Shown here: positions 3,460-45,569 of the stretch, one piece after another
Layout: each line of letters starts with the position of its first letter
How positions within the stretch are numbered: the stretch's first letter is position 1
Source: Vicinamibacterales bacterium
Lineage (GTDB): Bacteria; Acidobacteriota; Vicinamibacteria; Vicinamibacterales; SCN-69-37
Length of the DNA: 64,000 nucleotides
Reading direction: 5' to 3'
Assembly: GCA_036675475.1 (NCBI GenBank)
Contig: JAKFEY010000002.1
Coordinates: forward strand, 4,459-68,458
Notes under the pieces: generated by a model
The model's database searches: none
What the model saw: the letters and a program-made list of their open reading frames with translations, nothing else
What the model was told of the DNA's origin: nothing
Translations under genes and position numbers: made by a program

Positions 3460-3990
3460 ATGTCGAACCGAATCATCATCAGTGCACTCAGCGCGTCGAT
3501 CCTGCTCGGAACGGCCGCCGCCGCCCAGGCGCAGACGCAGCAGACGCCGCCGCCGACCACGCCGCCGGCGCAGCAGCCTGCCGCCCCCGCGCAGCCGACC
3601 GAGCCCGCGCTCGGCTTTACGAGCGATGCCGGCATGATCTTCAACGTCATCAAGGCGGCCGGCACGGCCGACTTCGAGATGGTGCTTGGCCGTCTGCGCG
3701 AGGCGCTGCAGAAGAGCGAGAACCCCGCCCGCAAGCAGCAGGCCGCCAGCTGGAAGGTGTACAAGTCCACCGACCCGTCAGCCGACGGCAACGTGCTCTA
3801 CATCTTCATGTTCGATAACGCCGTGAAGGGCGCCGACTACGACCCCGTCAAGATTCTCTCGGAGGCGTTCCCGACCGAGGTCAACGACCTCTACGAGAAG
3901 CTGAAGGCCGCGTACGCGACCATGAACAAGGCGGGCCTCGCCAAGATCATGGACATGAGCGCGATGGGCATGAAAGAAATTCAGAATTAG
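3460..3990 (+). CDS. Secreted hypothetical protein (paralog 2)
   Basis: Signal peptide ending AQA-Q; shares FN.IKA..TADFE, QQAAS.K.YK, DP.KIL.E and LY.KLK with the previous gene. Confidence 0.75.
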   Translation: MSNRIIISALSASILLGTAAAAQAQTQQTPPPTTPPAQQPAAPAQPTEPALGFTSDAGMIFNVIKAAGTADFEMVLGRLREALQKSENPARKQQAASWKVYKSTDPSADGNVLYIFMFDNAVKGADYDPVKILSEAFPTEVNDLYEKLKAAYATMNKAGLAKIMDMSAMGMKEIQN

Positions 3991-4097
3991 TGAGTTAAGA
4001 ATTAAGAATTGGTTCGCGAACGGGGGCGGCCTTACGGCTTGCCCCCGTTTTCGTTTAACACGCAACTCTTAACTCTTAACTCACCAACTCAGAATTT
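3977..4097. repeat. Inverted heptamer arms (GAGTTAA/GAATTAA vs AACTCTT) enclosing a terminator hairpin
   Basis: 3977-4010 is a near reverse complement of 4064-4097. Confidence 0.85.
4019..4056 (+). terminator. Intrinsic terminator-like hairpin between convergent genes
   Basis: aacgggggc...gcccccgtt followed by a T-rich tract. Confidence 0.7.
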
Positions 4098-4562
4098 CAG
4101 GTTTAGGCCCGCGTAGAAACGCTGAACGGTGGGGTGCAGCGGTTCGCCGCGCAGGTTGAAGATGCGGTAGTCCAGGCGCGCGCGGACGGGGCCGAGCAGG
4201 CCGAACTTCACGCCGCCGCCGATGTTGGTGCCGACGTTGGTTTCCTGCGCGTCGCCCAGCCGCTCGCGATACGCGCCGGCGCCCGCGGTCGCATAGAACT
4301 GCAGGCGGCTGAAGGGCGTCTGCACCAGAATGTTGCCCATGCCGGTCGTGAGCGACGGCCGCGCCTTCAGGGCATCCTCCGCCGAGTTCGCGTACTCGAA
4401 CTCGAAGGCGACCACCAGCAGCCCGATGCCGGCCGAGAACCCGCGCGTCATGTGGGCGTCCGGCTTGTTCAGAAAACCGAGAAACAGCGTCGCGTCGGCA
4501 AACGCCGGCGCCGGCACCGCGATGAGTCCTGCCACGAGCGCCGCACGAAGAAGTCTGCGCAT
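4089..4562 (-). CDS. Small outer-membrane beta-barrel protein
   Basis: Signal peptide ending AFA-D, alternating beta-strand pattern, C-terminal Phe (GLNLKF). Confidence 0.75.
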
Positions 4563-5728: not shown

Positions 5729-7095
5729 CATTATCCGAGCGCGTCCTCGCCGGCGACGTGCGTGCCGTGGCGCGCGCCATCTCGCTCATCGAAAACGAGG
5801 CGCCCGAAGGCGCCGCGCTCATCGGCCGCGTCTTCGCGAAGACCGGCCGCGCTTATCTCATTGGCGTCACCGGCCCGCCCGGCGCGGGCAAGAGCACGCT
5901 GGTCGATCGCCTCACGACCGAATACCGCATCGCCGGGCACAAAGTCGGCATCATCGCGGTCGATCCGACCAGCCCCTACAGCGGCGGCGCCATCCTTGGC
6001 GATCGCGTCCGCATGCAGGCGCACGCGGGCGATGACGGCGTGTTCATCCGCAGCATGGCCACGCGCGGCAATCTCGGCGGCCTCAGCCGCGCCACCGCCG
6101 AAGCCGCCCTCGTCCTCGACGCCGCCGGCTTCGACATCGTCATCATCGAAACGGTGGGCGTGGGGCAGGACGAGGTCGACATCGTGCGCACCGCGGATGT
6201 GTCGATCGTCACGGTCGTGCCGGGGACGGGCGACGAGGTGCAGGCGCTGAAGGCCGGCATCATGGAAATTGCCGACATCTTCGTAGTCAACAAGGCCGAC
6301 CGCGAGGGCGCGGATCGCACCGCGGCGTCGGTGGAAGGCATGCTGGCGCTGCAGATGTGGGAGCCCGGCACGTGGCGGCCGCCCATCATGAAGACCGAAG
6401 CGACCACCGGCAAGGGCGTGCCGGAGCTGGTGGCGTCGATCGGCAGGTTCCGCGAGCACACGAAAGAGGAAGTCGGCCAGCGCCGGCGGACGCGCGCGGA
6501 GTTCCGGCTGCGCGAGCTGCTCGGCCGCGCGTTCATGCGGCATCTCGAGAAGGACGTGCTCGGCGAAGGCGAGTTCGAGCGCGAGCTGGGACGCATCGCG
6601 AAGCGCGAGACCGATCCGTATGCGGTGAGCGAGATGCTGATCGGCCGCGCGCTCGGCGGCCACACCTGGGCGCTCCGCATGGATCATCTCGGCATTGCGG
6701 TGACCGACATCGAGGCGGCGCTCGGCTTCTGGCGCGACGGCCTCGGCCTGAACGTCGAGCCGGCCGAAGACGTCGCGACGCAGCGCGTGCGCGCGCATTT
6801 CCTGCCGGCCGGCGGCGCCGCCATCGAGCTGCTCGAGGCGACATCGGACGATTCGCCCATCGCGAAGTTCGCGGCCAGGCGCGGCCCCGGCCTGCACCAC
6901 GTGACGTTCGAGGTGCCCGACATCGCCGCGTCGCTCGCCAAACTCAAAGCCGCCGGCGTGAAACTGATCGACGAAACCGCGCGCCCCGGCGCGCACGACT
7001 CGCTCGTGGCCTTCATCCACCCCTCGAGCACGCACGGGGTGTTGGTGGAGTTGAAACAGAGAGGCTCCAGGCCCCAGACTCCAGACTCCAGATAG
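5725..7095 (+). CDS. meaB: MeaB (methylmalonyl-CoA mutase GTPase chaperone) fused to methylmalonyl-CoA epimerase
   Basis: [41 protein letters not shown]; then VOC domain DHLGIAV, GPGLHHV.FEV, F.HP..T.GVLVEL. Confidence 0.9.
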
Positions 7096-7135
7096 CTGGA
7101 GCCTGCTGGAGTCTGAAGCCTGGAGTCTGGAGCCT
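7062..7135. repeat. Inverted heptamer hairpin (CCAGACT / AGTCTGG)
   Basis: aggctccag..ccagactccagactccag ... ctggagtctg..ctggagtctggagcct. Confidence 0.85.
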
Positions 7136-7136
7136 G

Positions 7137-13624: not shown

Positions 13625-15150
<1,526 letters not shown>

Positions 15151-15151
<1 letters not shown>

Positions 15152-15213
15152 GCCAGAGGCCAGCGGCCAGAGGCCAGAGGCCAGGGGCCAGAGGCGAGAG
15201 GCCAGGGGCCAGA
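15151..15213. repeat. Heptamer array GGCCAGA x9 (left arm)
   Basis: Nine 7-nt units counted directly. Confidence 0.95.
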
Positions 15214-15233
15214 GGCGCGCAATCCCCGCTGCG

Positions 15234-15599
15234 TTAGTCACGAAGCTGTCGGAGCGATTTGATCAGTTTCTCCAACATGCGGCGAGCTTCGAGTGCGCAG
15301 TGTCTGCCTTCAGCCGCAGCGTCTGCGGTGAGGAAGCCGAGCCGCGCAGCGACGTGGAGCAAGTACTCCGTTTCGGCCGATGATCCAAACGCGATGTCCA
15401 GGAAGCGGATGTAGTCGCGACGGCTGTCGCGTGCGCATCCTTCGACGATATTTGTTGGTACAGAAAGACTTGCCCGCCGCAGTTGCGCGCGCAGGCCGAA
15501 CCGCTCGTCTGCCGGAAAAGTTCCGGTCAGACGATAGACTAGGACAGCGAGTTCGTCAGATTTGTGGAACACGGTGAGCTTCAAATGATCGCGACCCAT
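15234..15599 (-). CDS. Four-helix-bundle protein (23S rRNA-IVP / Avd-like family)
   Basis: L.VF.K...L...VY.LT..FP..ERFGL..QLRRA..SVP.NI.EG..R......FL.IA.GS..E; GGAGG RBS. Confidence 0.92.
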   Translation of the reverse strand: MGRDHLKLTVFHKSDELAVLVYRLTGTFPADERFGLRAQLRRASLSVPTNIVEGCARDSRRDYIRFLDIAFGSSAETEYLLHVAARLGFLTADAAAEGRHCALEARRMLEKLIKSLRQLRD

Positions 15600-15623
15600 G
15601 GAGACCTCCGGCGCCGGGCACAG

Positions 15624-15638
15624 GCATGCGCCGTACCA
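15624..15638 (-). promoter_or_regulatory. Candidate sigma54 promoter for the four-helix-bundle gene
   Basis: TGGTAC-N5-ATGC (GG-N10-GC) just upstream of the RBS on the - strand. Confidence 0.4.
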
Positions 15639-15645
15639 GCGGGCC

Positions 15646-15673
15646 CCTGGCCTCTGGCCTCTGGTCTCTGGCC
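15646..15673. repeat. Heptamer array TCTGGCC x4 (right arm, inverted relative to 15151)
   Basis: cctggcc tctggcc tctggtc tctggcc. Confidence 0.9.
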
Positions 15674-15685
15674 CGTCGGAGCCGG

Positions 15686-16912
15686 ATGTCGTTAGAACTC
15701 TTCATCGCCCTCCGCTATCTGCTCGCGCGGCGGAAGCAGGCGTTCATTTCGCTCATCTCCCTGATCTCCACGCTTGGTGTCGGCGTCGGTGTGATGGCGC
15801 TCATCATCGCGCTCGCGCTGATGACGGGGCTGCAGCAGGAGCTGCGCGATCGCATCGTCGGATCTACGGCGCACATTTATGCGTTCCGCATCGGCGGCGG
15901 AATTGAAGATCCTGCAGCGGAGTTGCAGAAACTGGAATCGCAGCCGGGCGTGCTTGGCGCGGCGCCGGTGGTGATGGGGAAGGCGATCCTGCAGAGCGCC
16001 GACGGATCGCAGTTCATTACGCTCAAAGGGATCGATCCGGCGCTCGAGCCGCGCGTCACTGAAGTGAGCCGGTCGATGCGGCAGGGCGAGCTCGCGGCGC
16101 TGTCGAACCGGTCTGAAGACGATCCCGACGGCATCGTCATCGGCGAAGATCTGGCGGCGGGATTGCGCGTGACGGTCGGCGACCACGTGAGCCTGCTCGT
16201 GCCGGAAGGCACGCTGACGCCCGGCGGGATGGTGAACCTGCCGCGCACGTTCAAGGTCGTCGGCATCTACCGGCTCGGCCTGTTCGAGTTCGACGCCGCG
16301 TACGGCTTCATCCACCTCGACGTCGCGACGCGCATCCTGAAGAAGTTCGGGCCCGACTACATCGAGCTGCGCGCGGCGGACATGTTCGAGGCGCCGTCGC
16401 TGGCCCGCCGGCTGGAGCAGACGCTCGGCCCGCAATATCAGCTGCAGGACTGGTCCGAGATGAACAGCTCGCTGTTCTCGGCGTTGTGGCTCGAGAAGAT
16501 GGCGATCTCGATCACGATCGGGCTGATCGTAATGGTCGCGGCGCTCAACATCATCGCGTCGCTGATTCTGCTGGTGATGGAAAAGAGCCGCGACATCGCG
16601 ATTCTGAAGACGATGGGGTGCTCGAAGCAGCGGATTCGCACCATCTTCATGCTGCAGGGGCTGGTGATCGGCGTCATCGGGACGGCGATCGGCGCGGCGC
16701 TCGGGCTCGCGGTGTGCTTCGTCGCCGACCGCTACAAGCTGATTCAGATTCCCATCGACGTCTACCAGATCTCCTACGTGCCGTTCACCGTCGAGGTATC
16801 GGACCTGCTTGCCGTGGTCGCCGCCTCGATCGTGATCTGCTTCGTCGCCACGATCTATCCGTCACGCCAGGCCGCGAAACTCGATCCGGCCCAGGCGTTG
16901 AGGTACCAGTGA
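15686..16912 (+). CDS. lolE: Lipoprotein-releasing ABC permease LolC/E
   Basis: FIALRYL, GV.ALII...M.G, VAALNII..L...V.EK..DIAILKTMG, YP..QAA.LDP..ALRY; a single LolC/E-type gene. Confidence 0.88.
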   Translation: MSLELFIALRYLLARRKQAFISLISLISTLGVGVGVMALIIALALMTGLQQELRDRIVGSTAHIYAFRIGGGIEDPAAELQKLESQPGVLGAAPVVMGKAILQSADGSQFITLKGIDPALEPRVTEVSRSMRQGELAALSNRSEDDPDGIVIGEDLAAGLRVTVGDHVSLLVPEGTLTPGGMVNLPRTFKVVGIYRLGLFEFDAAYGFIHLDVATRILKKFGPDYIELRAADMFEAPSLARRLEQTLGPQYQLQDWSEMNSSLFSALWLEKMAISITIGLIVMVAALNIIASLILLVMEKSRDIAILKTMGCSKQRIRTIFMLQGLVIGVIGTAIGAALGLAVCFVADRYKLIQIPIDVYQISYVPFTVEVSDLLAVVAASIVICFVATIYPSRQAAKLDPAQALRYQ

Positions 16913-16920
16913 CGGCAGTC

Positions 16921-16966
16921 AGGCCACAGGCCAGAGACCAGAGGCCAGGGGCCGGAGCCGGGGGCC
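16921..16966. repeat. Degenerate GGCCAGA heptamer array
   Basis: ggccaca ggccaga gaccaga ggccagg ggccgga. Confidence 0.8.
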
Positions 16967-16967
16967 T

Positions 16968-17638
<671 letters not shown>

Positions 17639-17660
<22 letters not shown>

Positions 17661-21418: not shown

Positions 21419-23971
21419 ATGAAATATCGATTTGTCCTCGCGGCCGCCGTGCTCGTGGCGCTGCCTCCGGCAGTGTCCGCACAAACCACGCCGCCGCCCG
21501 CCGCGGCCCAGGCGCCTGCTGTCCAGCAGCAGCCGGCCGCGATGCCGCCGGCCGGATCGGGCCCGACCTTCCGGAACCTGTTTCCGCGATGCGAGCCCGA
21601 CAACGTGTGCCTCGTCGATCCGATGACGTATCTCTATTACATCGAGACGCGTCCGAGCGTGCCCAGCCAGAACCGCTGGGTGCCGTGGAGCAACGAGGTG
21701 GCCGAGTCGCTGCGGCGCGACTTCAACCGCCTGTGGGCCACCAACTTCCTCGAAGATCTGTCCATCGAAGTCGTCGACAGCACCTATCCGAATGGCGTGG
21801 TCGCCAAAGACGTCATCATCCACATGACCGAGCGTCAGCGGGTGAAGATCGTCGACTACCAGGGATCGAAGCAGGTCGAGACGAGCGCGATTGAAGAAAA
21901 ACTGCAGCAGGAGAACATCGTCCTGCGCATCGACACGTTCATCGACCCGCCGACGATTCGCCGCGTCGCCGGCATCGTGCGCGATCTCTACGCCGAGAAG
22001 GGCTATCAGTACGCCGAGGTCACGCCGGAGATCAAGCCGGTGGCGGGCGGCCCGAAGCTGGTGCACCTGACGTTCAACGTCACGGAAGGCCCGAAGGTCA
22101 AGATTCGCGAGGTCGACTTCGTCGGCAACAGCGCGATCAAGGACGGCAAGCTGCGCGGCAAGATGAAGGAGAACAAGGCCAAGGGCTGGCTCTCGTTCGT
22201 CACCGGCGGCGGCACCTATCAGGAAGCGAAGTTTGCCGAGGACGCGGAGCTGGTCACCGGGTACTACCTGGAGCAGGGCTACATCCGCGCGCGCGTCGGC
22301 CAGCCGCAGATTGAAATTCTCGAGGACTCGGAAGACGGCGCCACGCGCTGGGTGCGCCTGCGCGTGCCGGTCGACGAGGGCCCGCGCTATCGGGTCGGCC
22401 AGTTGTCGTTCGAAGGCAACACGATCATCAGCGACGAGAACTTCGCCACGCTGTTCAAGCTGAAGCCGGGCGACTGGTACAGCCACAAGAAGTTCATGAA
22501 GGGCCGCGAGAAGGCGCAGGAGGCGTATGGCGCCAACGGCTACATGGAATTCAACGCCTATCCGGACTTCCCGGATCTGACGGCCGAGGCGACGGCGCCG
22601 GCCGCCGCTGTCGAGGGTCAGCCTGCGGCTGCACCGAAGCCTGCGATGCCGCCCGGCACCGACGTCACCGACGTCATCGTGCGCGTCGAGGAAGGGCCGC
22701 AGTACTTCGTCAACCGCATCACCTTCGTCGGGAACACGACGACGCGCGACAGCGTCATCCGGCGCGACCTGCGGATCTACGAAGCCGGTGTGTTCAACAC
22801 CGAGGGCCTCAAGCAGAGCATCCGCCGCATCAATCAGCTCGGGTACTTCAAGCCGATTGAGGGCAACGAAGGCGTCAACATCGAGAAGGCGCCGGGCGCC
22901 GACAACAAGGTCGACGTCACGCTGCGCGTCGAGGAGCAGAACCGCAACCAGCTGACGTTCGGCGCCGGCGTGTCGCAGTTCGAGGGCTTCTTCGGCAACC
23001 TGTCGTTCCAGACGGCCAACTTCATGGGCCGCGGCGAGACGCTGTCGATTTCGCTGCAGCAGGGATCGCGCGCCAAGAACTATCAGATTGCGTTCAGCGA
23101 GCCGTATCTGTTCGACCGGCCGATCACGGCCGGGGTGGACATCTATGTGCGCGAAGTGCGCTACATCGGCCAGTTCACGCAGGCGTCGAAGGGCGGCAAC
23201 ACGGTGTGGGGCTTCCCGGTGGCGAACTTCACGCGCATGTTCGCCGGCTACAGCTACGAAGACACGGAGCTGAAGGACGTCGATCCGTTCTTCGATCCGA
23301 AGGTGCTGGCGCAGTACCTGCTGCTCGGCGACGAGGGCCGCCGCGTGGTCAGCAAGATCTCGCCGAGCATCGTGCACAACACGGTGGACAATCCGATCTT
23401 CGCGAGCCAGGGCAAGCGCTACAGCGCGTCGTTCGATCTGGCCGGCATCGGCGGCACCGAAAGCTTCTGGAGCACGCGGCTCGAGGGCATCCAGTACGTG
23501 CCGCTGTCGCGCCGCATCTCGCTCGGCTTCCGCGTGCAGGGCGAGTACATCCGCCCGTACGGCGACACCGTGGCGACGGGGCTGCCGATTTACGAAAAGC
23601 TGTTCCTCGGCGGCGAGTACAGCGTGCGCGGCTTCGACATCCGCACCATCTCGCCGCGCGACGCGAGCGGCTTCATCATCGGCGGCAACAAGAGCCTGCT
23701 GTTCAACGGCGAGTTCCTGGTGAACGTCGGCGGCCCGGTGCGGGCGCTGCTGTTCTACGACGCCGGCCAGGTGCAGCCGTCGGGCACGCGGCTGCGGTTC
23801 CCCGACTTCAAGACGTCCACCGGCGCGGAAGTCCGCTTCTTCATGCCGGTGCTCAACGTGCCGTTCCGGCTGATTTTTGCCTATAACCCGCAGCGCGACG
23901 GGATTTTTGACAACCAGCTGCTGCCGCAGAAGAAATTCACGTTCAAGTTCGCAGTAGGATCAACGTTCTAA
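21419..23971 (+). CDS. bamA: Outer membrane protein assembly factor BamA
   Basis: POTRA repeats (GN.TTRD.VIRR), NF.GRG, FLGGEYSVRGF, C-terminal GSTF. Confidence 0.95.
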   Translation: MKYRFVLAAAVLVALPPAVSAQTTPPPAAAQAPAVQQQPAAMPPAGSGPTFRNLFPRCEPDNVCLVDPMTYLYYIETRPSVPSQNRWVPWSNEVAESLRRDFNRLWATNFLEDLSIEVVDSTYPNGVVAKDVIIHMTERQRVKIVDYQGSKQVETSAIEEKLQQENIVLRIDTFIDPPTIRRVAGIVRDLYAEKGYQYAEVTPEIKPVAGGPKLVHLTFNVTEGPKVKIREVDFVGNSAIKDGKLRGKMKENKAKGWLSFVTGGGTYQEAKFAEDAELVTGYYLEQGYIRARVGQPQIEILEDSEDGATRWVRLRVPVDEGPRYRVGQLSFEGNTIISDENFATLFKLKPGDWYSHKKFMKGREKAQEAYGANGYMEFNAYPDFPDLTAEATAPAAAVEGQPAAAPKPAMPPGTDVTDVIVRVEEGPQYFVNRITFVGNTTTRDSVIRRDLRIYEAGVFNTEGLKQSIRRINQLGYFKPIEGNEGVNIEKAPGADNKVDVTLRVEEQNRNQLTFGAGVSQFEGFFGNLSFQTANFMGRGETLSISLQQGSRAKNYQIAFSEPYLFDRPITAGVDIYVREVRYIGQFTQASKGGNTVWGFPVANFTRMFAGYSYEDTELKDVDPFFDPKVLAQYLLLGDEGRRVVSKISPSIVHNTVDNPIFASQGKRYSASFDLAGIGGTESFWSTRLEGIQYVPLSRRISLGFRVQGEYIRPYGDTVATGLPIYEKLFLGGEYSVRGFDIRTISPRDASGFIIGGNKSLLFNGEFLVNVGGPVRALLFYDAGQVQPSGTRLRFPDFKTSTGAEVRFFMPVLNVPFRLIFAYNPQRDGIFDNQLLPQKKFTFKFAVGSTF

Positions 23972-23995
23972 GACTGAAGACCGAAGACTGAAGAC
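23970..23995. repeat. Heptamer array AAGACTG x about 3.7
   Basis: aagactg aagaccg aagactg aagac. Confidence 0.8.
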
Positions 23996-24617: not shown

Positions 24618-24718
24618 ACCAGAGGCCAGAGGCCAGAGACCAGAGGCCTGAAGATGAGCCGCGCGAGCGTTGTCTCGCGCGGCTGAGCCCTAGGGCCTAT
24701 GGCCCCTGGCCCCTGGCC
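24617..24718. repeat. Inverted GGCCAGA heptamer arms around a GC-rich hairpin
   Basis: 5 units at 24617-24651, hairpin agccgcgcgag/ctcgcgcggct at 24657-24684, 4 inverted units at 24691-24718. Confidence 0.85.
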
Positions 24719-24735: not shown

Positions 24736-25995
24736 GTGTCACCCTCCATCCACGCCACCCTCGACCGCCTCAGCTATCGCTATCCGTCGCTGCTGGTCGA
24801 TGCCGTGACCGAGCACGAACCGGGCAAGCGCCTGGTGGCCGTCAAGAACGTCACGGTCAACGAAGATTTTTTTCAGGGACATTTCCCGGGCACGCCGGTC
24901 ATGCCGGGCGTGCTGATGATCGAGTCGCTGACGCAGGTGGCGACGCTGCTGCTGCTGTCGACCGGCACGCCATCGGGCGGCGCCGGTAATGTCGGCCGGG
25001 CGTTCCTGCGCGGCGTCGAGAACGCGAAGTTCCGCCGCCAGGTCGTGCCGGGCGATCGCGTGCGCCTCGAGGTCTCGCTCGGGCGCCGCCGCGGGCGCAT
25101 CGCGCGCGCGTCGGGCATCGCCTACGTCGGCGAGCACATCGTCGCCGAAGCCGATCTGATTCTCGCGATCACGCGGCACGCCTCGATTCATCCGACGGCC
25201 ATCATCGGCGAGGGCGCCGAGGTGGGCGAGGGCACCGTCATCGGCCCGTACGCCGTGGTCGGCCCGCACGTGAAGATCGGCCGCGATTGCCATATCGACT
25301 CGGGCGCCGTGATCGACGGCTGGACGTCGGTGGGCGACGGCACGCGCATCTTCCCGTACGCGTCGGTGGGCCTGATTCCGCAGGACCTGAAGTTCAAGGG
25401 CGAGATGACGCGCCTCGAGATCGGGGCGCGCAACCTCATTCGCGAGTTCGTCACCATCCACCGCGGCACGCAGGGTGGCGGCGGCGTGACGACCATCGGC
25501 GACGACAACGTGTTCATGGCGTATGCGCACGTGGCGCACGACTGCCACGTCGGCCACCAGACGATCTTCGGCAACGGCGCCACGCTCGGCGGCCACGTCA
25601 CCGTCGAGGACTTCGCCACCATCAGCGCGTTCTCGGGCATCCACCAGTTCTGCCGCGTCGGCCGCCACGCCTTCATCGGCGGCTTCTCGGTGGTCACGAA
25701 AGACGCGCTGCCGTACGCGAAGACCGTGGGCAACCGCGCGCGCATCTACGGCTTGAACACCATCGGTCTCGCGCGCCGCGGTTTCTCGAACGAGCTGCTG
25801 GCGAAGCTGAAGAAGACCTACCGGTACCTGCTGACCTCGAAGCTGAACACCAGCCGCGCCCTCGAAAAGATCGAGCGCGACCCGGCCCTCAGCTGCCCGG
25901 AGGTTCAGTACCTCGTCGACTTCATCCGCGACTCACAGCGCGGCGTCATCCTCCGGCGCCCCGTGCGCAAGGTGGAGGAGATGGTTGAAGACTAA
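24736..25995 (+). CDS. lpxA: FabZ-LpxA fusion (3-hydroxyacyl-ACP dehydratase / UDP-GlcNAc acyltransferase)
   Basis: RYP.LLVD, KNVTVNE.FF.GHFPG.PVMPGVL.IE; then IHPTAII hexapeptide repeats, PQDLKF, HVAHDC, HQF in one frame. Confidence 0.92.
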   Translation: MSPSIHATLDRLSYRYPSLLVDAVTEHEPGKRLVAVKNVTVNEDFFQGHFPGTPVMPGVLMIESLTQVATLLLLSTGTPSGGAGNVGRAFLRGVENAKFRRQVVPGDRVRLEVSLGRRRGRIARASGIAYVGEHIVAEADLILAITRHASIHPTAIIGEGAEVGEGTVIGPYAVVGPHVKIGRDCHIDSGAVIDGWTSVGDGTRIFPYASVGLIPQDLKFKGEMTRLEIGARNLIREFVTIHRGTQGGGGVTTIGDDNVFMAYAHVAHDCHVGHQTIFGNGATLGGHVTVEDFATISAFSGIHQFCRVGRHAFIGGFSVVTKDALPYAKTVGNRARIYGLNTIGLARRGFSNELLAKLKKTYRYLLTSKLNTSRALEKIERDPALSCPEVQYLVDFIRDSQRGVILRRPVRKVEEMVED

Positions 25996-26057
25996 TGGAA
26001 AGTGGAAAATGGAAAATGGAAAATGCTATTTCCAGTTTCCACTTTCCAATTTCCATT
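25994..26057. repeat. Inverted heptamer hairpin (AATGGAA x4 / TTCCAnT x4)
   Basis: AT-rich arms read directly. Confidence 0.9.
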
Positions 26058-36333: not shown

Positions 36334-36404
36334 GGTTGCTGGTAGCTGGTTGCTGGTTCTTGGTGCGTGACGGACCAGCCACCAGCAACCAACAACCAGC
36401 AACC
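36334..36404. repeat. Inverted heptamer hairpin (GGTTGCT x4 / AGCAACC x4)
   Basis: Arms read directly. Confidence 0.9.
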
Positions 36405-45534: not shown

Positions 45535-45566
45535 GCCTGTGGCCTGGGGCCTGGGGCCTGGAGCCT
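45535..45566. repeat. Heptamer array GCCTGGG x about 4.5
   Basis: gcctgtg gcctggg gcctggg gcctgga gcct. Confidence 0.8.
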
Positions 45567-45569
45567 GTC

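Follow-up and report, generated by a model that had tools for sequence, protein, structure and literature searches.

A four-helix-bundle gene between inverted heptamer arrays at the lysS-lolE junction of a Vicinamibacterales bacterium: an intervening-sequence-like cassette in a protein-coding operon

We analyzed a 64,000-nt stretch of DNA (the window) from a Vicinamibacterales bacterium (assembly GCA_036675475.1, contig JAKFEY010000002.1, forward-strand positions 4,459 to 68,458), and in it the spacer between lysS and a lolE-type permease gene. A small antisense gene of the four-helix-bundle family first met in 23S rRNA intervening sequences (IVS) stands there between two inverted tandem arrays of a 7-nt unit. 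Coordinates without a contig prefix are those of the window, and C-numbers are contigs of the genome that holds it (G000, a 3.73-Mb draft of 68% G+C in 102 contigs). The lysS stop codon is TAG and the left array begins inside it; the lolE ATG lies at 15686, 12 nt past the right arm, and the cassette (15150-15673) exactly occupies the spacer from the lysS stop to the lolE start. The arrays, the antisense gene, its ribosome-binding site and a sigma54-like promoter had all been listed in the initial annotation and were all present where it had placed them (Table 1). A third array between lolE and lolD adds to that list. Two congeners, G001 and G003, carry the cassette at the same junction, each with the GGAGG Shine-Dalgarno sequence. 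An array also stands at the same place after lolE in G003 (L173), and none is found there in G001. The post-lolE array carries in each case the species' own cassette unit (AGGCCAG in G000, CAGGGCC in G003), and thus neighboring arrays seem to be homogenized or co-selected.

The two arms had been described as mutually complementary in several registers. We found nine registers in which they pair, the best of them joining 15158-15189 with 15642-15673 over 32 nt at 94% complementarity and a distance of 452 nt. The arms close the cassette in the predicted folds of both strands (minimum free energy and centroid; z -5.3 and -7.1), and in the minimum free energy folds the inner half of the left arm is the pairing part. 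In three more registers the right array pairs with the third one (16921-16957), across lolE. On the flank inverted-repeat (IR) score used throughout (ungapped, +1/-2, 260-nt flanks) the cassette reached 26. A 3042-nt contig from the DNA metagenome of another study (run X6) reproduced 14390-17100 with one difference, and being independent it shows that the lysS-cassette-lolE structure is not an assembly artefact. No Rfam family, those of rRNA included, matched 14900-17100 at E up to 1, and scanning for sigma70 promoters gave none over 15000-17100. Only one terminator was called in the same way, inside lolE (16588-16601), and none within the cassette.

Table 1. Features at and around the lysS-lolE junction, and copies of a separate palindromic element of the same genome (tandem arrays called with Tandem Repeats Finder, TRF).
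Feature	Position	Strand	Evidence
lysS (lysyl-tRNA synthetase), upstream host gene	13625..15151	+	PF00152 E 6e-93; PF01336
Left arm (AGGCCAG)x9.6, ten GGCC cores at 7-nt spacing	15150..15216		TRF score 106, 86% matches
121-aa four-helix-bundle gene (23S rRNA IVS protein / S23p), antisense to lysS-lolE	15234..15599	-	PF05635, TIGR02436
Shine-Dalgarno GGAGG, 5 nt before the four-helix-bundle ATG	15605..15609	-	read from sequence
Putative sigma54-type -24/-12 motif TGGTACGGCGCATGCC, 23 nt before the ATG, inside the arms	15623..15638	-	motif scan
Right arm (GGCCTCT)x4.6, five GGCC cores, reverse complement of left arm	15642..15673		TRF score 50, 88%
lolE-type permease (MacB_PCD + FtsX), downstream host gene	15686..16912	+	domain matches; synteny
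Third array (AGGCCAG)x5.3 between lolE and lolD, left-arm orientation	16921..16957		TRF
lolD-type ABC ATPase, context	16968..17660	+	PF00005 E 1.2e-34
CGTAGTTTCAAAACTACG element copies	C8:57510, C9:25005, C35:17325, C38:146383, C39:10385, C50:2215, C50:41591, C85:39889, C92:27151, C97:20862

The 121-aa product matched PF05635 over nearly the whole model (E 8.2e-31; 106.8 bits, cut-off 33.8; protein residues 7-110 aligned to positions 2-105 of the 106-position model) and also TIGR02436 (E 1.1e-31; 109.2 bits, cut-off 24). Ten PF05635 genes above the cut-off and two weaker matches are encoded in G000, and the paralogues are mutually 20-36% identical. The ratio of nonsynonymous to synonymous substitution (dN/dS) was 0.12-0.24 in five of six syntenic pairs, with 0.24 for the lysS-lolE gene of G000 against that of G001; the sixth pair (C44 vs L033) was saturated at synonymous sites. 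The ratios indicate that the four-helix-bundle protein is maintained by purifying selection. PADLOC matched 0 families for three of the four-helix-bundle proteins. Two decayed genes of the family keep intact inverted heptamer arms, one at C69:45470-45751 in G000 (internal TAA) and the other being the lysS-lolE copy of G003 (L003), whose reading frame is broken by a frame break or deletion.

We then asked of the whole genome where such arrays lie. Period 7 is the dominant tandem class of G000, with 199 arrays at the strict setting (at least 3.5 copies and score at least 40) against 79 for period 9, the next class; at the loose setting (at least 2.8 copies and score at least 36) there were 267 period-7 arrays of 62 different units. 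A scan of G000 for long-loop inverted repeats (arms of at least 22 nt, loops of 150-900 nt) gave 59 loci, nine of which enclose a PF05635 match, namely eight of the ten genes and a pseudogene with an internal stop. Their units are GGTTGCT, AGGCCAG, GGTTCGGNN (9-nt), TTGATTT, ATTGGAA, AATTGTA, GAATTAA, GGGGAAA and AAGCCGG. One of the other two genes has only a 12-nt non-tandem inverted repeat, and the other lies at a contig end. Among 600 random 310-nt windows of G000 and 343 small open reading frames (ORFs) from a crude gene map, one each had an IR score of at least 18, and the one ORF is itself a four-helix-bundle gene. The same score was reached in 21 of 30 genomes of the order (G000 included, each represented by its best PF05635 locus).

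The association extended well beyond the order. With a three-sequence protein alignment we retrieved 80 loci from a set that includes Nitrospira, Desulfobacterales, Planctomycetota, Verrucomicrobiota, Bacteroidota, Proteobacteria, Clostridia, Chloroflexota and the candidate phyla radiation (CPR), 72 of them with enough flank to score. The IR score was at least 15 in 42 of the 72 and at least 18 in 28, and it reached 15 in 0 of 132 control windows shifted by 850 nt within the same loci. Over all 132 oriented loci, a tandem array was present in 227 of 264 flanks and on both sides in 100 loci, and period 7 accounted for 160 of the 227 array-bearing flanks once multiples were collapsed. The inverted-array layout is a general property of the PF05635 family and not of the lysS-lolE locus, and the enrichment of flanking arrays on which the initial annotation had staked its reading was found both within G000 and across phyla. 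In 91 of the 111 cassettes with scorable arms (11 of 11 in G000) G exceeds C in the 5' arm; since this is a property of the inverted repeat and looks alike on both strands, it carries no information on the orientation of the gene.

Heptamer arrays might be generic intergenic repeats or terminator-like hairpins, with the gene merely caught between two of them. The sheer number of strict period-7 arrays speaks for such a coincidence, as do 46 gene-less heptamer hairpins with loops under 150 nt across G000, one long-loop pair (C6:489-971) that encloses an EutN/CcmL-like ORF in place of a four-helix-bundle gene, and the many relatives that have arrays and no gene in the lysS-lolE spacer. Against it, a single small family occupies nine of the 59 long-loop repeats, the only small ORF among the 343 to reach the score belongs to that family, the cross-phyla excess over controls arises in phyla without such a repeat background, and empty sites are free of arrays. 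We consider coincidence highly improbable.

The lysS-lolE junction itself was compared among relatives. G000, G001, G002 and G003 belong to one genus, and G031, G125, G198 and G049 to another family. Although lolE directly follows lysS in all 30 loci examined, the gene is present between them in three (G000, G001 and G003), so that the junction is far from invariant, which is what the initial annotation had expected of an inserted cassette. The 27 gene-free spacers measure 0-192 nt, with 24 of them no longer than 84 nt; several hold solo short-period arrays and two hold gene-less inverted arrays. Within the genus the empty site is that of G002 alone, a genome flagged as unpublished. A protein search of 401 genomes of the order gave matches in 62, and six of the best 30 loci lie between lysS and lolE (G000, G001, G031, G125, G198 and G049), all antisense to the operon. 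The repeat unit is GGCCAGA in G000, GGCTCCA in G001, G031 and G125, CAGGCTG in G198, CGGGCTA in G049 and GGCCCTA in the G003 cassette, so that the six carry at least four different units. In every junction cassette the two arms are complementary (IR scores of 16-29 for the six, and 24 for G003, scored separately). The units change between cassettes at the same site and the complementarity stays, so that what is conserved is the pairing and not the sequence. The protein of G031 shares 57% identity with its counterparts in G000 and G001, which share 62% with each other; LysS identity to G000 is 69% for G031 and 90% for G001. The shared site reflects either ancient presence with many losses or repeated arrival.

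To follow the other cassettes, we mapped the flanks of the listed G001 and G003 PF05635 loci onto G000. Five G000 cassettes (C41, C44, C45, C57 and C2) have syntenic partners in the congeners, with related arms. At four G000 sites whose orthologues in G001 or G003 carry a cassette, gene and arrays are both missing (C42:52810-52857, C30:8945, C46:31070-31105 and C63:7245-7278); there, cassettes of 533-735 nt stand for spacers of 0-46 nt, and the arms reach the flanking coding sequences. At a fifth site, C81:30977-31070, G000 has a gene-less ATTGGAA hairpin where G001 and G003 have cassettes with GAGTAAGG-type arms. The G000 copies C51, C30 and C45 have relatives of 75-77% protein identity, with the same arm family, at non-orthologous congener sites; over all related cassettes at such sites the identity spans 70-77%. 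The arms and the gene are gained and lost together as one unit.

These results raise the possibility that the cassette is a mobile element at the DNA level, whose inverted arrays are terminal repeats (forming a hairpin or cruciform) and which is moved by a host or trans-acting enzyme or by replication-template switching. Gene-less heptamer hairpins and solo arrays would then be deletion derivatives or relics. Presence and absence as a unit, array-free empty sites, the related cassettes at non-orthologous sites and the gene-less hairpin on C81 all fit such an element. An inner-junction word, AAATAGCA, is paired with its reverse complement at six sites, one of which holds a gene, and the six mostly adjoin heptamer arrays resembling C30/C45-type cassettes. 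Among the period-7 arrays of G000, 185 of 264 lie within one mismatch of a cassette-flanking unit, against about 15% expected for random units; the largest orphan family, AGCCTGG, has 27 arrays. Base composition points the same way. The G+C content at third codon positions (GC3) is 0.63 in the lysS-lolE four-helix-bundle gene against 0.88-0.90 in lysS, lolE and lolD, and 0.63-0.80 over the ten PF05635 genes against a genome median of 0.88.

However, no transposase or recombinase was found in or beside the cassettes, and no target-site duplication was visible at the six filled and empty junctions compared. The arms differ between copies, contrary to what a sequence-specific enzyme would require, and the low identity among the G000 paralogues argues against a recent burst of copies. 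On the same grounds, the lack of a transposase, the differing arm units and the absence of duplication in six comparisons, we rejected an identity as an insertion sequence or miniature inverted-repeat transposable element (MITE). Y1 transposases were likewise rejected as mobilizers, because the two PF01797 genes of G000 (C54:109599 and C89:6167) are flanked by other repeats, not heptamers. A single X6 contig joins 15195 directly to 15642, skipping the gene, with 25 nt on its shorter side. We did not count this joint as an excised form because G000 has 31 other arrays of the same unit, and it is most likely another hairpin locus with that unit. An element moved at the DNA level therefore seems unlikely to us on balance. 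Mobility through the arms, as proposed at the outset, may hold: the coming and going of whole cassettes and the presence of related ones at non-orthologous sites were shown, and a mechanism, target-site duplications and recent copies were not seen. At C89:6167-6660 and C63:7245-7278 we noted a Y1-transposase (RAYT-like) gene followed by GCAGGCCTGAAGGCCTGC hairpins, a hairpin type that recurs elsewhere; this looks like an ordinary repetitive extragenic palindromic (REP)/RAYT-like system, unrelated to the heptamers.

We further analyzed the length of the arrays. Of the G000 period-7 arrays of at least 25 nt, 133 of 267 measure 30-33 nt, and beside four-helix-bundle genes across phyla 41 of 103 measure 29-32 nt, a peak equal to the span of five cores. 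The solved homologues found by PDB sequence matching (2gsc_A, E 1.5e-23; 2rld_A, E 1.8e-7) have five chains in each entry, and the Xanthomonas S23p protein is described as a homopentameric toroid (PMC4990558). A pentameric ring might read the array with one repeat core per subunit, so that five cores at 7-nt spacing, in RNA or DNA, would be its cognate site, by analogy with a ring protein on spaced RNA repeats. The arms would then serve autoregulation, protection or propagation of the cassette, a role compatible with stem formation. The right arm and the third array fit with five GGCC cores each and the left arm with ten, period 7 is kept across phyla with the sequence free, and the arm unit family follows the protein subfamily at non-orthologous sites. 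Period-9 arrays agree with a fixed unit count as well (median 4.8 units, 43 nt; n=15), but those of period 6 (n=5) and period 8 (n=14) come closer to a fixed length of about 31-34 nt, and several arrays hold 8-10 units. Cassettes at one and the same site differ in unit although their proteins are 57-62% identical, and unit would track protein just as well if gene and arms did no more than move together. We hold a ring reader to be a tentative idea, somewhat better placed than the DNA-level element. A broader version of the same idea would have the four-helix-bundle pentamer as cognate reader of five-core arrays, and gene and arms as a transposase-free selfish cassette that invades operon stop/start junctions and rRNA helices; the many gene-less heptamer hairpins and solo arrays of bacterial genomes, perhaps the cyanobacterial heptamer repeats among them, would have descended from it as relics or as non-autonomous derivatives. 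We offer this as a speculative extension that is probably not correct as a whole.

The sigma54 consensus is GG-N10-GC at -24/-12, and we scored motifs against it. Of the 33 cassettes in G000, G001 and G003, 18 had a motif score of at least 13, as did 24 of 30 order-level homologues, against 110 of 4000 random 110-nt windows (2.8%) and 115 of 2522 gene upstream regions. A strict regular expression, composed after the data were seen, occurs 57 times on both strands of G000, with four occurrences in the ten 60-nt windows upstream of PF05635 genes where 0.005 were expected. The four-helix-bundle gene thus has a conserved sigma54-type promoter as predicted from the motif, and the promoter of the initial annotation gains in generality. 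G000 encodes rpoN at C92:40415-40888. In most copies the 3' end of the motif lies 11-13 nt before the ATG, from which nearly leaderless mRNAs are predicted; where a Shine-Dalgarno sequence is present as well, as in the lysS-lolE copy, this distance is 22-24 nt. In other phyla a score of 13 was reached at 0 of 72 loci, suggesting that the promoter type is lineage-specific and lies outside the universal cassette. The predicted promoter is inside the arms, and therefore the gene's own mRNA would carry only the 3' arm, the full stem being confined to transcripts that enter from outside.

By analogy with the rRNA elements, we propose that the locus is a cassette of the IVS type: in the host transcript its two arms would pair, leave the insert as a loop and probably provide a site for RNase III. 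We give this reading about an even chance (roughly 0.5). On a lysS-lolE read-through transcript a stem of some 32 bp would arise from the arms, looping out 425 nt of insert and bringing the lysS stop beside the lolE ribosome-binding site. The stem would be a substrate of RNase III, as in the homologous ORF-bearing 23S rRNA IVS, and the insertion could thereby be tolerated between genes that are otherwise adjacent. The four-helix-bundle gene would be transcribed from inside the arms under sigma54 control. We infer pairing and cleavage in vivo, and likewise the means of mobility. The initial designation of the locus as an IVS-like cassette holds, given the strong enrichment of inverted short-period arrays and the tandem heptamers of the Coxiella 23S IVS at its RNase III site (PMC4990558).

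Several points weigh against this proposal. RNA pairing leaves unexplained why the arms are 7-nt tandem arrays in all phyla and why their length peaks at 30-33 nt. Mismatches in the arms show no strand asymmetry (157 of G:U type and 155 of A:C type over 111 loci), so that selection on the RNA of one strand is unsupported; homogenization of the arms at the DNA level would look alike, and the symmetry fits the mobile DNA element equally. A cut by RNase III in an mRNA, unlike one in rRNA, separates two cistrons, and that this is beneficial or neutral is an assumption of the model. The synonymous divergence (dS) between the G000 and G001 four-helix-bundle copies is 1.3 against 0.54 for the adjacent lysS, an excess that may be due to a weaker codon bias, or else to the cassette having been replaced and not co-inherited. 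The X16 and X17 contigs, labelled metatranscriptomic, are probably DNA according to their flags, and neither transcript ends nor strand can be read from them. A 375-nt X17 contig covers 15433-15807 without a difference and is not assignable to RNA, and X20 contigs cover lysS only, with many differences.

To our knowledge, PF05635/TIGR02436 is a very large family of no known function, known since the 1990s only as the ORF of some 23S IVS and as a distant relative of Avd of diversity-generating retroelements (DGR). DGR Avd is a distantly related four-helix-bundle family with pentameric homologues, but the Avd model NF033474 gave the lysS-lolE protein 20.1 bits against a cut-off of 80, and no reverse transcriptase is encoded among the adjacent genes lysS, lolE and lolD (template and variable repeats were not searched for). 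In REPIN-RAYT systems inverted copies of a short repeat stand on both sides of a gene, and hairpins of that repeat also lie scattered, with no gene, through intergenic DNA; the lysS-lolE gene is a PF05635 member and not a Y1 transposase, and its arms are tandem heptamers with locus-specific units. Cyanobacterial short tandemly repeated repetitive (STRR) sequences are tandem 7-nt repeats in intergenic DNA, of unknown function. The arrays resemble them in being intergenic tandem 7-nt repeats, and no link of STRR to a protein family was found in our literature search (cyanobacterial loci were not examined).

The closest likeness is to the 23S rRNA IVS of Coxiella burnetii and Leptospira, in which an S23p/PF05635 ORF lies in the loop of a stem of terminal inverted repeats (PMC4990558). 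The Coxiella IVS has 428 nt and a 28-bp terminal stem, compared with 524 nt and a 32-bp stem here, and three tandem GACAGAT units with one degenerate unit precede its S23p ORF. The RNase III cut falls in the stem where the first repeat begins. Shared features are tandem heptamers at the 5' end, a sporadic distribution and an atypical base composition. Repeat number varies among Coxiella strains, and the Coxiella study notes the repeats without generalizing them and mentions an old proposal that the IVS ORF serves mobility (PMC4990558). The lysS-lolE cassette is unlike these elements in lying in the spacer of an mRNA operon and not in helix 9, 25 or 45 of 23S rRNA, in having its gene antisense to the host transcript with a Shine-Dalgarno sequence and a predicted sigma54-type promoter of its own, and in having pure tandem arrays for both arms. 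The gene here is also under purifying selection, whereas the Coxiella authors argue that their own ORF is decaying (PMC4990558). A '23S rRNA IVP' appears among genes associated with clustered regularly interspaced short palindromic repeat (CRISPR) arrays in a figure legend, and the association might reflect the flanking arrays (PMC10910872).

Our full-text search of the literature found no description of inverted heptamer arrays around the PF05635 family outside rRNA, and against that literature an IVS-type element living in operon junctions is new. What the present locus and its genome contribute are cassettes that share a site but differ in arm unit, empty sites without arrays among close relatives, the putative sigma54-type promoter and the peak in array length. 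Should the rRNA IVS be just one home of a general cassette that also occupies operon junctions in many phyla, the question shifts from the fragmentation of rRNA to the role and spread of the module. The conserved sigma54-type promoter predicts co-regulation of all paralogues. The changed units, the empty sites and the decayed copy with intact arms amount to a natural experiment in which pairing, RNase III processing, binding and mobility are directly testable. The cassette is also a candidate origin for the abundant intergenic heptamer arrays of this lineage.

Such arrays without a gene occur elsewhere in the window. Gene-less heptamer hairpins with loops of 2-53 nt lie at 7065-7136, 25994-26055, 36334-36404 and 3978-4082, with the units CTCCAGA/CTGGAGC, AATGGAA/ATTTCCA, GGTTGCT/ACCAGCA and AATTAAG/AACTCTT. 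Solo arrays lie at 23970-23995, 24619-24648 (the unit of the lysS-lolE cassette arms) and 45535-45567. Many heptamer hairpins of G000 (for example C38:9462-9568, C44:33144-33277 and C85:29195-29323) enclose one or two G+C-rich inner hairpins, whose stems vary and whose loops keep GACAACG or CGTTGTC; two often face each other around a T-rich center, like bidirectional terminators. At C33:83113-84016 (L072), four concentric inverted-repeat pairs of 30-41 nt surround an AGGCCAG heptamer hairpin, a nested palindrome due either to inverted duplication on a large scale or to an error of assembly. Another palindromic repeat, some 50 nt long and centered on CGTAGTTTCAAAACTACG, forms a family distinct from the heptamer arrays, with ten copies in G000 (Table 1), two of them at sites where G001 and G003 bear four-helix-bundle cassettes.

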